Of a stretch of 64,000 bases of DNA, positions 51,691 to 58,617 are shown piece by piece. Location: positions 46,910 through 110,909 of the forward strand of contig CAKNIB010000002.1 in NCBI GenBank assembly GCA_930979925.1, in the 5' to 3' direction. The DNA is from an uncultured Clostridia bacterium. GTDB lineage: Bacteria; Bacillota; Clostridia; Christensenellales; UBA1242. The notes beneath the pieces are model-generated. The model had not been told where the DNA came from. It did not search any database and was given only the letters and a program-made list of their open reading frames with translations. Within the stretch, counting starts at the first letter, position 1. Each line of letters starts with the position of its first letter. The position numbers and the translations under genes were made by a program.

Positions 51691-52248
51691 ATGAACTACG
51701 AAATTAGACATACGGGAACGATTGAGATTGAAACGGACAGACTACTACTTAGACCTATCTTGCTTTCGGACGCACAGAGCCTTTATGAACTTGTTTCGGA
51801 CAAAGATGTTTTAAAATATCTTGCAGGATTACCAGAATACACAGGTGTTGAAATGGCGGTTGATTATATTTCTGGCAAGCTTGAAAAGAAATATAAAAAT
51901 AAAGATTTTTATGATTGGGCTGTTGTTTTAAAAAGTGAAAATAAGATGATTGGCAGAATAAGCGTATATAAGCAAGATGATTATCGCCGAATGGCTGACC
52001 TTGTATGGCAATTAAATGCAAATTATCGCAATAAGGGATATATAAGCGAAGGTGTGAAAGCGGTCATCAACCACTTGTTTGATATTGGTTTTAAAAGAAT
52101 TGAAGCCTTTGCAGATGTTGTGAACAAAGCAAGCACAAAAGTTATGGCGAAAGTTGGAATGCAATATGAAGGAACATTAAGAAAATATGACTGTCGCCGT
52201 GATGACAGTCTATACGACGCAGAAATGTGGTCGATTATAAAGGAGTAA
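51691..52248 (+). CDS. GNAT N-acetyltransferase (RimJ/RimL-like)
   Basis: IETDRLLLRP... N-terminus and a GNAT core (YRNKGY...). Confidence 0.85.
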   Translation: MNYEIRHTGTIEIETDRLLLRPILLSDAQSLYELVSDKDVLKYLAGLPEYTGVEMAVDYISGKLEKKYKNKDFYDWAVVLKSENKMIGRISVYKQDDYRRMADLVWQLNANYRNKGYISEGVKAVINHLFDIGFKRIEAFADVVNKASTKVMAKVGMQYEGTLRKYDCRRDDSLYDAEMWSIIKE

Positions 52249-52251
52249 AAA

Positions 52252-53364
52252 ATGGAAGTTAAGCCAGATTGGAAAAATTCAATATTAAATGTTAGCGCCA
52301 CTCTTGCAGATTATATTGGCGTAAAGTCTAATATTGCTAAAATTGACATTTTAAAAAACGAATTAAATAAAAATTATAAGAATGTTATCTATATTTGTAT
52401 GGACGGACTTGGAATGTTCCCACTTGAACAAAACTTGCCAAAATCTTCTATTTTAAGAGAAAATGTTAAAAAAACTATTACATCTGTTTTCCCATCCACA
52501 ACAACTAATGCCACATCATCGTTGTATAGTGCAACATATCCGTCACAACACGGTTTGTTTGGTTGGAGTTTGTATTTTGAAAAGTTAAATTCCTGCGTGG
52601 ATATTTATATTGGACAAAATTCATACACGAGAGAACCTGTTGATATGTCCACAATAGAGGATTATTTGACCTTTGAAACATATTTTAGTAAAAGTAAAAT
52701 TCCTGCCTACACTGTGTTCCCAGACTTTATGAAATACTTACAAACAAGCACTAAAAATTTTAACTTTTCAACCGTAGAAGAAGCGTTTGATGTTTTAAAA
52801 GAAATTGTTAAAATCAATGAAAAGAAATTTGTATATTGTTATCTATCAGAGCCAGACGCAACTATGCACAACTACGGAACAGCAAGCAAAGAAGCAAAAG
52901 ATATTATTAAGACCATAAACAAATTGACAGAAGAACTTGCAAATCAAAGCACGGATACACTTATCGTTGTCACACCAGACCACGGACAGACAGATATAAC
53001 AAGTTATATCCCACTTTACGAAGATAAGGAACTTATGTCAACCTTAAAAACACCAATGTTTTTAGAGCCAAGAGCGACCGGAATGTTTGTTAAGAAAGAA
53101 TGTGAAGAAAAATTTTTAAAGGCAATGAAAAAGTATGAAAATAAAATCGAATTGCTAAAAACAACGGATTTGATTAAAGATAATTTCTTTGGTCCAAAAA
53201 CAGATAAACTTGAAATGCTTGGTGACTATATCGCAGTTGTGAAAAATGACTATGAACACATCTTATTTAAAGAAGATAGCATAAGATTTAAAGGTCATCA
53301 CACAGGGCTTACAAAAAAAGAGATGATCTTGCCGCTCATTATGATAAGTAAGCAAAGGAGTTAA
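52252..53364 (+). CDS. Alkaline-phosphatase-superfamily phosphodiesterase / nucleotide pyrophosphatase-like protein
   Basis: CMDGLG, FPSTTTNATSS...HG, EPD..MH, PDHG and GHHTG metal and nucleophile motifs. Confidence 0.8.
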   Translation: MEVKPDWKNSILNVSATLADYIGVKSNIAKIDILKNELNKNYKNVIYICMDGLGMFPLEQNLPKSSILRENVKKTITSVFPSTTTNATSSLYSATYPSQHGLFGWSLYFEKLNSCVDIYIGQNSYTREPVDMSTIEDYLTFETYFSKSKIPAYTVFPDFMKYLQTSTKNFNFSTVEEAFDVLKEIVKINEKKFVYCYLSEPDATMHNYGTASKEAKDIIKTINKLTEELANQSTDTLIVVTPDHGQTDITSYIPLYEDKELMSTLKTPMFLEPRATGMFVKKECEEKFLKAMKKYENKIELLKTTDLIKDNFFGPKTDKLEMLGDYIAVVKNDYEHILFKEDSIRFKGHHTGLTKKEMILPLIMISKQRS

Positions 53365-53425
53365 CTATGTTTACAGTCGAAGAAAGAAATGAAATATTAG
53401 AAAGAAAGATGATTTTAGGTCAAAA

Positions 53426-53623
53426 GTGGTTGAAACTTATGGCAATGCAAAGAACATTGAAACAAAACATTTTAGGCAGGTCGATACATTAGATAATGAT
53501 TTTAAACTTGGCTTTGAAGAAACTGAACAAACCAAAACTCATATTAAAATGGAATTGAATAAAGAGAAATATATAGCTTATGCAAATTACACAAAGTGTG
53601 GTGTTAAAAAGGAGAAATTATGA
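53426..53623 (+). CDS. Small hypothetical ORF (GTG start); alternative 41-codon ORF at 53367
   Basis: Fills the gap between operon genes. The start is uncertain. Confidence 0.3.
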   Translation: MVETYGNAKNIETKHFRQVDTLDNDFKLGFEETEQTKTHIKMELNKEKYIAYANYTKCGVKKEKL

Positions 53624-56757: not shown

Positions 56758-57254
56758 AAAGAACAGAAGCCGAAGAATTATACGGAAAGCAAGTTATAGC
56801 CACACAACTTATTGATTTGACCAACAGTGTGGCAGACGAAGCCTTAAATATATTGCGTGATTTTTATCCACAGGGAATAACCGGAGAAGTTTTGGATTTG
56901 TTAGACAAAGAAGAAAATATGGAAATCTTCTATGACAAGATTTTTGATGCCGTGCAGGAATGTTTTACATTGCCACAGATTAAAATCTTAAATCAATCAA
57001 ATCCAGATTCTGGCAACTACCATTTGATGTATAAAAGATTGCACGAACACTTTAAAGAGAAAATTGCCGAGACTGGCATAGAAGAACCGCCAATTCTCTT
57101 GCAGGCTGACTATGATGAAGTCTATGATGTTCTTTTTAGAGAAATGGAAAATTGCACCCCAGAGCCACGAGATAAAAATCCAAATATGTGGCGAGAGATA
57201 CCAAAAAGTCGAGAAATTGACTATAAAAAAATTCAAGAAAGATTTAAAGCTTAA
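56754..57254 (+). CDS. Hypothetical protein
   Basis: ATGA overlap with the upstream stop. 166 aa. Confidence 0.55.
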   Translation: MKRTEAEELYGKQVIATQLIDLTNSVADEALNILRDFYPQGITGEVLDLLDKEENMEIFYDKIFDAVQECFTLPQIKILNQSNPDSGNYHLMYKRLHEHFKEKIAETGIEEPPILLQADYDEVYDVLFREMENCTPEPRDKNPNMWREIPKSREIDYKKIQERFKA

Positions 57255-57269
57255 AAGGAGAAAAGAAAA

Positions 57270-57521
57270 ATGAAAGATGTAAGAGAAATAAATGTGTTTA
57301 GAGTTTGGGTTAATGCGCTTGTAGAAGGCATAGTGCAGGAATACCCTACAGATATATGTTTTTGTTCATATACTGACGCTGAAAAAGGTGTGGTATATTT
57401 AAACTCAACAAAAACAGATGATAGATACGGATATTATTTTAAACCTGAAACGACAAAAATTTATAATAGCGCACAAAGTTTAATTGATGAAAGAGAAACA
57501 ACTATCCACGAAAAAGGTTAA
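57270..57521 (+). CDS. Hypothetical small protein
   Basis: 83 aa with SD AAGGAG. Confidence 0.5.
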   Translation: MKDVREINVFRVWVNALVEGIVQEYPTDICFCSYTDAEKGVVYLNSTKTDDRYGYYFKPETTKIYNSAQSLIDERETTIHEKG

Positions 57522-57561
57522 AAATAAAAGATTTTTATCATTTTATATTTTGGAGTAAGGA

Positions 57562-58617
57562 ATGAGCATTATTGAACAAGTTAAAAATGAATTATTAAGA
57601 AGAAATCAAGATTATATTGAAAAAGTTGATAGTTATGATTTTTGGAATAATCATATCAAATTTGTAGTTGATGAAGCATTAAAACTTGCAAGTGTCTATG
57701 GTGCTGATAAGGAAATAGTAGAACTTGGAGCATTATTGCACGATATTGCCCTTGTTTCTAATGTTGGAACAAAAGCAGACCACCATACAAATGGAGCAAA
57801 AATTGCTGAGGAAATCCTAACTAACTTAAAATATTCACAAGATAAAAGAGAAAGAGTTGTAAATTGTGTTTTGCACCACAGAAGCTCGAAAAATGCAGAA
57901 AATATAGAAGAATTATGCGTTTGCGATGCCGATATTCTTGCCCACTTTGACAATATTCCAATGATTTTCTTCAAGTCTTTTACTATGGGCAAAATGACTT
58001 TAAATGATATGGGTGTGTTCATTCAAGGCTTTCAAAAAGATTTTGATGATTTAAGTGACAAAACAAAAGAAACTTTTAAAGATAAATACGAAAATATAAT
58101 GCAAGTTCTTTTCGGTGAAAATTGGAGACAACCTATAAGTTTTGAAGAAAGAGATACTAAATCTAATCATATTGAAACTATAATTCACAAAATTGCCGAC
58201 TTGTGCAAAAATGACATTAAATCTTTCCCAGAAATAAAGTGTATGGATTATGTGGATATTTTCCCAAGAAGTGAAGAAGATAGAGTGCTTTTAAATGATG
58301 AAGCAATTAAAATAGGCAACATCATTGAGAAAAACGAAAGAGGAACAACATATCGTTTAAATAAACCAATATCAACTGAACTTGGGAACATTGAATTGTT
58401 GAAAATCCGTAAATTTGATGAAACAAGATTGCCTTGGCTTGGTGCAGGTGATTTTATTGTAAATGATTTTGATAAATTTAAAAACAAATATCAAAATGCA
58501 AAAAATTGCAAATATGTTGAAGCTCCAACTTATAATGCAATTGAAATAAAAACTGATAATACCCTTGCTTATGTTATGGACATACCAACAAGCGAATATT
58601 ATAAAACTAAATCTTAA
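57562..58617 (+). CDS. HD-domain phosphohydrolase with a ~160-aa C-terminal extension
   Basis: H...LHDIA...H...D pattern (GALLHDIALVS, VLHHR, CDADILAHFD). Confidence 0.75.
   Translation: MSIIEQVKNELLRRNQDYIEKVDSYDFWNNHIKFVVDEALKLASVYGADKEIVELGALLHDIALVSNVGTKADHHTNGAKIAEEILTNLKYSQDKRERVVNCVLHHRSSKNAENIEELCVCDADILAHFDNIPMIFFKSFTMGKMTLNDMGVFIQGFQKDFDDLSDKTKETFKDKYENIMQVLFGENWRQPISFEERDTKSNHIETIIHKIADLCKNDIKSFPEIKCMDYVDIFPRSEEDRVLLNDEAIKIGNIIEKNERGTTYRLNKPISTELGNIELLKIRKFDETRLPWLGAGDFIVNDFDKFKNKYQNAKNCKYVEAPTYNAIEIKTDNTLAYVMDIPTSEYYKTKS

Follow-up and report, generated by a model that had tools for sequence, protein, structure and literature searches.

Immunity to microcin C (McC) is conferred by enzymes of four known families, namely MccE2 (GNAT), MccF (S66), MccG (S51) and MccH (HIT). 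As shown by Yagmurov et al. 2022 (PMC9239234), processed McC is hydrolysed at its carboxamide bond by S51 peptidases named MccG, which also provide resistance; because they add S51 to the known families, three of the four are represented in the operon described here. This operon occupies positions 51691-58617 of a 64,000-nt stretch of DNA (the window, to which all coordinates refer unless a related locus is named; L-numbers denote related loci on other, metagenome contigs). Sequence comparison identifies this block as the cargo of an integrative mobilizable element (IME) found in uncultured chicken-gut Bacillota. We propose, at about even chances of being right, that it would serve as a transferable, stall-induced modular toolbox against translation inhibitors of the aminoacyl- or peptidyl-nucleotide or -nucleoside type, each enzyme attacking a bond of its own.

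The protein families of the operon are those of MccE2, MccF and MccG and of their stand-alone homologues (RimL, B. anthracis MccF and B. subtilis MccG). In particular, one of the two S51 proteins appears from alignment to have a Ser-His-Asp triad, the type known from MccG clade V, and the S66 protein shares with MccF both the catalytic triad and the adenine-stacking Trp. The locus differs from described McC immunity in that the three families stand in one operon with nucleotide hydrolases, on a mobile element and behind a leader-peptide attenuator. It also differs from mcc clusters: the window element carries no mcc biosynthetic genes, the closest relative of the S66 protein is the Ba3275 subfamily, and the associated aminoacyl-tRNA synthetase (aaRS) genes are for Tyr, Trp and Thr, not for Asp.

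Enzyme families of the cargo operon

The initial annotation described nine co-oriented, tightly spaced genes in the block. Eight of these, all on the plus strand, are well supported by the open reading frame (ORF) listing and by Pfam and NCBIfam scans, whereas one 65-codon ORF (53426-53623, plus strand) is doubtful as a gene, since it has a GTG start and a weak ribosome-binding site (RBS) and is uncalled in L004 and L006, where another call replaces it; it belongs to no family. The successive junctions measure 3, 61, -4, 8, 13, -4, 15 and 40 nt (range -4 to +61), and a GGAG-type RBS precedes every gene of the operon except this ORF. All families claimed for the products were confirmed by Pfam, which assigns none to two of the ORFs (166 aa and 83 aa).

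The S66 serine peptidase (55636-56757) is, on sequence grounds, MccF-like and not an orthologue of the LD-carboxypeptidase LdcA. Its most likely start is 55636 (373 aa), the one used by gene calls on metagenome contigs, not 55522. Both S66 domains are present (PF02016, 4.7e-35; PF17676, 1.5e-22). The nearest solved relatives in a PDB sequence search are the Ba3275-type 'MccC family' proteins of B. anthracis (E = 2.5e-92); the biochemically characterised MccFs of B. anthracis (BA_5613) and E. coli match at 1.9e-34 and 5.9e-32, whereas LdcA structures align with residues 59-143 only (E = 1.8e-14 to 8e-04). The E. coli MccF used as reference comes from a plasmid with the whole mcc cluster (ThiF-type MccB, MFS, methyltransferase, GNAT MccE and S66 genes). 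The window protein is 32% identical to it and retains its triad S118/E243/H311 as well as the loop residue W186 (FIPWNE versus INWNE), which in MccF stacks on the adenine of processed McC (PMC8323819). The assignment thus follows from the stronger MccF matches, from the conserved triad and W186, and from the score against the LdcA equivalog PRK11253, which is far under its cut-off (61.1 against 378 bits, NCBIfam).

Two products belong to family S51. The first, S51a (53620-54345), is a divergent hydrolase (PF03575, 5.8e-09, above the gathering score) with a Ser-His-Asp triad predicted by alignment. The second is the C-terminal half, S51b, of a GNAT-S51b fusion (54354-55622; PF03575, 3.4e-24), in which alignment to PepE (1FY2) reveals a PepE-like Ser-His-Glu triad; stand-alone S51b proteins of 235 aa are common in Clostridia. 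The two are homologous by hhalign (probability 95.6%), the corresponding motifs being GASGGA/PHYK/LPD in S51a and GSSAGA/VHYK/LPEE in S51b. A PDB search with S51a, both as a single sequence and as a profile, gave no match. The triad of MccG clade V is Ser-His-Asp, and its Asp alone does not determine MccG activity (PMC9239234).

PepE, cyanophycinase and LdcA belong to the same MEROPS families (S51 and S66) as the window proteins and likewise have serine-hydrolase triads. We rejected all three identities, since the curated cut-offs are far above the scores obtained (53.5 against 156 for PepE, 35.4 against 126.6 for cyanophycinase, and the LdcA values given above). The window proteins also differ from all three in their genomic setting, a mobile element, and the S66 protein differs from LdcA in its MccF-type loop.

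The first gene of the operon (51691-52248) encodes GNAT1, an Acetyltransf_3 protein of the RimL/RimJ/MccE2 family (PF13302, 2.4e-28). It matches 3FBU (9e-15) and MccE (3R95, 1.6e-06) in the PDB, is 24% identical to residues 417-585 of E. coli MccE (pairwise E = 1e-08), and scores 31.1 against a cut-off of 184 for the RimL equivalog. The GNAT half of the fusion protein has weak matches to the AAC(6'), ArsN1 and Sat4 models. GNAT1 is followed by a cytoplasmic NPP-type phosphodiesterase of the alkaline-phosphatase superfamily (52252-53364; PF01663, 1.1e-19), best matched in the PDB by ENPP1/4/7. By eye, no signal peptide is seen in it, and NPP-type metal and nucleophile motifs are visible. In related loci it is fused to a GNAT (L006) or to a GNAT and an NTP_transf_2 domain (L022).

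The last gene (57562-58617) encodes an HD phosphohydrolase, YpgQ-like in residues 1-190, followed by about 160 C-terminal residues. The HD domain proper (residues 31-127; Pfam HD, 9.1e-11) has invariant metal ligands H31, H60-D61 and D124. It models confidently, and the best Foldseek match of the model (TM 0.69 on the target) is 5DQV, the (d)NTP pyrophosphohydrolase YpgQ of B. subtilis (PMC8177086). By its predicted structure the HD domain is thus YpgQ-like, that is, nucleotide-directed. The C-terminal part is modelled with pLDDT below 50, has no Pfam match at E <= 1, and in comparison is unlike the GNAT that comes after short HD genes in other variants.

The remaining two products belong to no family. 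The 166-aa protein (56754-57254, the first ORF of this kind) is helical and confined to these cargo operons; its family is tiny (6 clusters among 5.8e9 proteins and about 15 representatives among 1.84e9), and its AF2 model (pLDDT 77.5) has no PDB fold match at E <= 0.001. The gene for the 83-aa protein (57270-57521) regularly stands just 5' of the HD gene, with genes of the same type in this position in L018, L020, L022 and L009/L010. A known anti-phage defence system was also considered and rejected, PADLOC models giving only chance-level matches in the operon.

Leader peptides of the cargo and synthetase genes

Upstream of the cargo, the initial annotation placed a leader-ORF attenuator, which could be located in full (all elements on the plus strand). 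A promoter-like site, TTGCAA with a 17-nt spacer and a TG-extended TATACT (51365-51393), is conserved in the leader alignment. It is followed by a leader ORF of 31 codons with a GGAG RBS (51415-51510; MRNLTPMQIKNLEVSVFGCGYYFCIGANMIV), which is conserved before different cargo, and, 87 nt beyond the end of this ORF, by an intrinsic terminator with an 11-bp stem and a U-run (51598-51627, regions 3 and 4). In the minimum free energy fold, region 1 (51424-51439, leader codons 4-9) pairs with region 2 (51482-51497, codons F-C-I-G-A-N). Region 2 holds AUUGGUGC, the same sequence as the terminator 3' arm, and because of this it can pair with the terminator 5' arm instead, which yields the antiterminator. 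The duplex energies in five variants are -15.9 to -19.7 kcal/mol for the 1:2 pairing and -11.1 to -12.6 kcal/mol for the 2:3 pairing.

All three alternative pairings (1:2, 2:3 and 3:4) are retained in five diverged variants. In the more distant leader of L031 the three regions have changed together, with the pairings retained, and the terminator of L011 shows one compensatory change from C-G to U-A. The paired part of the leader ORF is invariant in the alignment down to synonymous sites. The same leader precedes different cargo in L005, L018, L022, L031 and L035. A search with the leader DNA gave no match among viral contigs and five among metagenome contigs, two of which lie at contig ends. 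No T-box or other known leader was found by an Rfam scan at the gathering score and E <= 1.

Like ribosome-mediated attenuators, both of the trp type (trpL, and pheM upstream of pheST) and of drug-sensing leaders (ermC, cat, bmrCD, vmlR, lmo0919), the operon leader combines a short translated ORF with an intrinsic terminator and with three pairings that exclude one another. It differs from trpL and pheM in that no codon forms a run in it, many different codons being used, and in that the ORF contains both region 1 and region 2. The leader ORF was also considered as a precursor of a ribosomally made, post-translationally modified peptide (RiPP) or of a quorum-sensing signal, and this was rejected on three grounds: the operon encodes no modifying enzyme, the Cys residues are not conserved in L030, and synonymous sites are invariant where the RNA pairs.

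Two observations concern the leader in assemblies. Long assemblies break right at it (L025, 113-142; L029, 178-207), and RNA contig 17 of run X25 joins the leader (window 51441-51694) to different cargo. A single sample probably contains several cargo variants side by side.

Downstream of the cargo lie two aaRS genes, each behind a leader of its own (plus strand). The trpS leader ORF (58749-58784; leader RNA fold z = -9.9) encodes MFSSFIWWRKK, with two Trp codons; the 5' arm of its terminator (58875-58910) can pair with an antiterminator at 58825-58836. Of the two synthetase genes counted in the initial annotation, tyrS is intact, whereas trpS is a pseudogene (58943-60832) consisting, by alignment to B. 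subtilis TrpRS (3PRH), of a 5' fragment (58943-59140) and a 3' fragment (60224-60832) and lacking about 55 codons between them. The tyrS leader ORF (60909-60956; MKKLFANNSYYYYYI) has five Tyr codons and is conserved in L035; positions 60960-60973 can pair either with the Tyr codons or with the 5' arm of the terminator (61013-61042). The TyrRS that follows is intact (61201-62430; Pfam, and TIGR00234 with 383.6 bits against a cut-off of 113.8). The gap in trpS is occupied by a gene for a 244-aa putative lipoprotein (59410-60144) with a perfect TTGACA-17-TATAAT promoter (59351-59379); within the region, RNA contig depth is greatest over this gene.

The link of the cargo to aaRS genes, proposed from the window, recurs in other elements, where the cargo often precedes a spare aaRS gene, either for TyrRS (L035, 8199-9735) or for ThrRS (L030, 12477-14229). 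The ThrRS leader peptide of L030 is MFKFVSIQLNNTTTTVAK, with a TTTT run, and a terminator-like hairpin comes after it. Each aaRS leader thus has a run of its own codon (WW in trpS, YYYYY in tyrS, TTTT in thrS), as trpL and pheM do, and both a terminator and an alternative antiterminator pairing were traced for the trpS and tyrS leaders. The aaRS genes of Bacillota are normally T-box controlled. The Rfam scan detected no T-box before the aaRS genes at the gathering score or E <= 1, and control by cognate-codon leaders is unusual for Bacillota.

An extra aaRS whose expression sets in once the main enzyme fails in charging has precedents in mupA/ileS2 on a plasmid, tyrZ and thrZ of B. subtilis, and the indolmycin-resistant TrpRS. 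Spare aaRS genes whose induction follows undercharging of their own tRNA would be consistent with replacement of the target. The window genes differ from these auxiliary copies in being under a cognate-codon leader peptide, not a T-box, and in that the trpS copy is dead.

The mobile element and its interchangeable cargo

The sequence that other contigs have in common with the window starts only at 51030-51100 and extends rightwards, and their leftward flanks differ, which indicates that the element ends at about 51.08 kb, in a tRNA-like fragment, and sits in different contexts. This fragment belongs to an exact 89-nt direct repeat on the minus strand. Copy 1 (50848-50936) comprises a tRNA-like 3' end (reading ..GGTTCGAGTCCACTCATCTCTACCA on the minus strand) and a terminator, and is an old att scar. 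Copy 2 (51032-51120) contains the left end of the element with the att core (about 51079-51100). ARAGORN and Rfam found no intact tRNA at copy 1. A third, degenerate tRNA-like fragment with a 35-nt insertion in the T-loop region is seen at 50679-50770. The sequence TTGACATCA occurs eight times in the window (0.72 expected), seven copies surrounding the tRNA-like repeats (50479-51250); these copies may be recombinase arm sites.

At the other end, the element backbone (63290-64000, plus strand) consists of a 76-aa ORF (63290-63520) and the start of a MobL relaxase gene, which begins at 63517 and continues past the window end. In L001, MobL (PF18555) is followed, just past the point corresponding to the window end, by a tyrosine integrase (Phage_integrase). 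Full-length copies keep the order split trpS, tyrS, 76-aa ORF and MobL relaxase after the block; L009 and L010 have a different ending, after a shorter HD gene. L022, whose cargo is different, carries MobL, an HTH_17 gene and an integrase as well as a partial tRNA in the corresponding position, and its backbone is 90% identical to that of the window in spite of the different cargo. The spacer between tyrS and the relaxase gene (62431-63516), 90% conserved in L022, contains, besides strong inverted repeats (63125-63207), internal repeats of about 70 and 126 nt, and may be an origin-of-transfer (oriT) region.

A tyrosine integrase, a relaxase and insertion at a tRNA-type 3' end, typical of the IMEs of Bacillota, are all seen here. 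The family also resembles them in its different flanks and in the excisionase-like HTH_17 gene at the far end (in L022). What distinguishes it from known IMEs is a cargo slot under one conserved attenuator, filled combinatorially from a narrow pool of enzymes. A megablast search of plasmid and phage collections with the element gave no match.

The initial annotation suggested a multi-enzyme pathway and named beforehand, as evidence against it, a gene set not conserved as a unit. The exact set was found only in near-identical copies of one mobile element, and diverged relatives shuffle, drop and fuse the modules; for this reason we describe the block as a modular toolbox and not as a fixed pathway. 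The pool of modules comprises GNATs, two S51 types, MccF-like S66, NPP phosphodiesterase, NTP_transf_2, YpgQ-like HD, nucleoside phosphorylase, CN-hydrolase, NUDIX, ABC exporter and ABC-F, and beta-lactamase-family genes also occur among the variants. Hydrolases are repeatedly fused to GNATs.

Listed in gene order, the cargo of L018 consists of a GNAT-S51a fusion, S51b, 166-aa and 83-aa proteins, a short HD protein and ABC-F. That of L020 has NTP_transf_2, an ABC exporter, S51a, GNAT-S51b, 166-aa and 84-aa proteins, HD and GNAT, with no S66. L022 encodes GNAT, GNAT-GNAT, GNAT-phosphodiesterase-NTP_transf_2 (818 aa), an 85-aa protein, HD, GNAT and GNAT-CN_hydrolase, and L011 encodes GNAT, GNAT-S51b, S66, a 108-aa protein, a PurZ-like protein and an AP endonuclease-fold protein. 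In L031 we found three GNATs, an ABC exporter, S51b, a homologue of the 166-aa protein, a 234-aa protein, nucleoside phosphorylase and CN_hydrolase; in L030, four GNATs, two S51 proteins, a 166-aa homologue and an ABC exporter, then ThrRS, SDR and NUDIX; and in L035, GNAT, phosphodiesterase, NTP_transf_2, a 166-aa protein, further proteins of no assigned function and nucleoside phosphorylase, then TyrRS. For L026 and L027 the resolved part of the cargo is one GNAT gene right after the leader. The ABC-F gene that ends the L018 cargo (4121-5818) passes the NCBI cut-off for 'ribosomal protection-like ABC-F' (465 against 380 bits).

The 255-nt stretch that separates the phosphodiesterase and S51a genes of the window (53365-53623), in which the doubtful GTG ORF is the only content, is different in L004 and L006 and missing where S51a comes after an ABC gene (L005, L020). 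It looks like a recombination scar joining modules.

Some of the modules also occur on chromosomes. An S51b-S66 pair in a Lachnospiraceae metagenome-assembled genome (MAG; L019, 3342-11937) stands beside housekeeping genes, without a leader peptide or attenuator upstream; it lies 3' of a nucleoside phosphorylase gene and of what we take, from product size and sequence start, to be mnmE, mnmG and rsmG. Stand-alone S51b homologues are located between a HisRS/HisZ-like gene and the gene for IleRS (L012, 5712-12082; also L013-L015), and a GNAT-HD pair with phosphodiesterase and NUDIX genes lies near HisRS (L033). Such associations of S51b and GNAT-HD genes with translation genes on chromosomes are anecdotal.

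Just left of the att scars, in the region 47299-50409, a homologue of adenylosuccinate synthetase is encoded. This PurZ-like protein (442 aa, with a C-terminal extension) matches 6FKO in the PDB (1.2e-33), PurZ of phage S-2L (7ODX, 5.3e-31) and phrog_1211 (1.2e-49); it gave the sole PHROGs match. Next to it are encoded a 207-aa protein of no assigned function and a DUF1848 protein that shows a radical-SAM-like motif. The cargo of L011 includes, after the S66 gene, a gene of the adenylosuccinate synthetase family (442 aa, PF00709; 5327-6655), presumably a homologue of the PurZ-like gene.

The region from cargo to aaRS genes is transcribed. In four chicken-gut metatranscriptomes, contigs cover 51.4-62.2 kb, the leftmost beginning at 51373-51441 and one spanning 55206 to 60986; contigs are almost nil over 50400-50850 and 63028-63900. 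The element is abundant in chicken-gut metagenomes, and 43 indexed blocks of metagenome contigs contain the identical GNAT-S51b fusion protein. MAG labels on the element contigs are Clostridia and 'Candidatus Caccosoma'.

Competing explanations and proposed function

The suggestion of aminoacyl- or peptidyl-nucleotide detoxification is strengthened by the above results, namely an S66 protein with W186 and the MccF triad, S51 proteins of an immunity family, GNAT1 of the MccE2/RimL type, a YpgQ-like HD protein, a conserved leader attenuator and the recurring link to aaRS genes, but that of a fixed pathway is not. A different possibility, which we regard as unlikely yet deserving attention, is a mixed bag of unrelated drug- or xenobiotic-modifying enzymes (such as aminoglycoside or streptothricin acetyltransferases, lincosamide nucleotidyltransferases, and esterases or amidases) riding on the element with no common substrate class, the leader sensing ribosome-targeting poultry drugs. 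The free shuffling of the cargo, the single-GNAT versions under the same leader, the AAC(6'), ArsN1 and Sat4 matches of the fusion protein, the NTP_transf_2, ABC-F and beta-lactamase-family genes in variants and the abundance of the element in chicken gut are all consistent with it, and fusions of independent resistance enzymes are common. On the other hand, among curated resistance models only ABC-F, in one variant, is matched at its cut-off, the pool leans strikingly to McC-immunity amide hydrolases and to nucleotide or nucleoside enzymes (phosphodiesterase, HD, NUDIX, nucleoside phosphorylase), and spare aaRS genes point to inhibitors of aaRSs, not to ribosome binders.

Nutrient salvage, in which small peptides (such as Asp-X dipeptides, cyanophycin fragments or murein peptides) are cleaved by the S51 and S66 enzymes to yield Asp and other residues, nucleotides are salvaged by the phosphodiesterase and the HD protein, and amino-acid starvation sensed via the leader turns the operon on, appears improbable. 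A leader of many different codons would respond to a general shortage of aminoacyl-tRNA, S51b aligns with PepE and keeps its Ser-His-Glu triad, and S51b genes and S51b-S66 pairs are found on chromosomes without mobile element or leader. It has to be set against this that the PepE, cyanophycinase and LdcA scores are all far under the cut-offs, that Pfam and NCBIfam scans found no peptide or nucleotide importer, cyanophycin synthetase or isoaspartyl dipeptidase in the window operon, that several GNATs have no role in salvage, and that a mobile element carries the block, together with ABC exporters and ABC-F. Producer self-immunity, where the host or a neighboring element makes a peptidyl-nucleotide antibiotic and the operon clears toxic intermediates in the manner of MccE, MccF and MccG, is more improbable still. 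The same families do act as self-immunity genes in mcc clusters, and mobile elements gain from recruiting such immunity genes (PMC9239234); nevertheless, the operon, the leader and the related loci examined contain no MccB/ThiF-type adenylyltransferase, no Asn-ending MccA-like peptide and no other biosynthetic core, and the element is found in different flanking contexts. Finally, we give almost no credence to housekeeping recycling of murein peptides, kept by the initial annotation as an alternative, in which the S66 protein acts as LdcA. S66 is indeed the family of LdcA, but the LdcA matches are partial and much weaker than the MccF-type ones (about 1e-32 to 1e-92), the PRK11253 score is low, the MccF-specific W186 loop is present, and the gene lies on a mobile element with no other murein-recycling gene nearby.

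Several points weigh against the toolbox explanation as well. AspRS is the only known target of McC, and the spare aaRSs are those for Tyr, Trp and Thr, not AspRS, while the operon leader lacks an Asp codon. The aromatic residues W453 and F466, which sandwich the adenine in MccE2, align with E49 and G62 of GNAT1, in a 24%-identity alignment that is too weak to settle the point. A literature search for Ba3275 and its PDB codes found no published function. S51b is roughly equidistant from all solved S51 proteins and S51a matches none by sequence, and both are no more than candidate members of clade V; in addition, the S51b triad ends in a PepE-type Glu, and E. coli PepE gives no protection against McC (PMC9239234). 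The GNAT, phosphodiesterase and HD proteins are generic folds, three products (the 166-aa and 83-aa proteins and the C-terminal part of the HD protein) have no assignable function, and contig-level RNA data cannot show induction or termination.

In the proposed toolbox, by analogy with the trp attenuator, stalling of a ribosome within about the first 16 codons of the leader would unmask region 2, which would then pair with the 5' arm of the terminator, so that transcription would read into the cargo. The GNATs would acetylate the alpha-amine, as MccE2 and RimL do, the S66 and S51 enzymes would cut the aminoacyl-nucleotide carboxamide bond, as MccF and MccG do, and the phosphodiesterase and the HD enzyme would degrade the nucleotide remnant. 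The cargo enzymes would act independently, one bond each, and the island would not be an obligate pathway. The spare TyrRS would be switched on at a shortage of Tyr-tRNA and replace the inhibited target.

A broader view, which we consider possible but on balance doubtful, is that the IME family provides gut Bacillota with a two-layer 'translation defence', composed of combinatorial detoxifying cargo and of spare aaRS genes controlled by their own codons. In the first layer, a generic ribosome-stalling leader would switch on MccE2-, MccF- and MccG-like enzymes, nucleotide hydrolases, nucleoside phosphorylase, exporter and ABC-F; in the second, since each leader is rich in its own codon, synthesis of the replacement aaRS would coincide exactly with inhibition of the resident enzyme. 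Taken singly, the enzyme families, attenuation by leader peptides and IMEs are already known. Neither the literature searches nor the plasmid and phage collections yielded an attenuator-controlled operon that unites nucleotide hydrolases with three McC-immunity families, a combinatorial cargo slot of this kind, or cognate-codon leaders in front of aaRS genes of the same element.

'Trojan horse' antibiotics of the McC type, which target aaRSs, are considered as feed additives and drug leads. If the toolbox explanation is true, a transferable island that is abundant in the chicken gut brings together spare aaRS genes and three immunity chemistries independent of one another, and would constitute a ready-made reservoir of resistance, as well as a source of new detoxifying enzymes, including those of families without known function. 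With respect to regulation, the element family presents aaRS genes of Bacillota under cognate-codon leader peptides, not T-boxes, and one conserved attenuator serving interchangeable cargo. If the two-layer view also holds, these elements would represent a previously undescribed transferable strategy of resistance to natural aaRS inhibitors.

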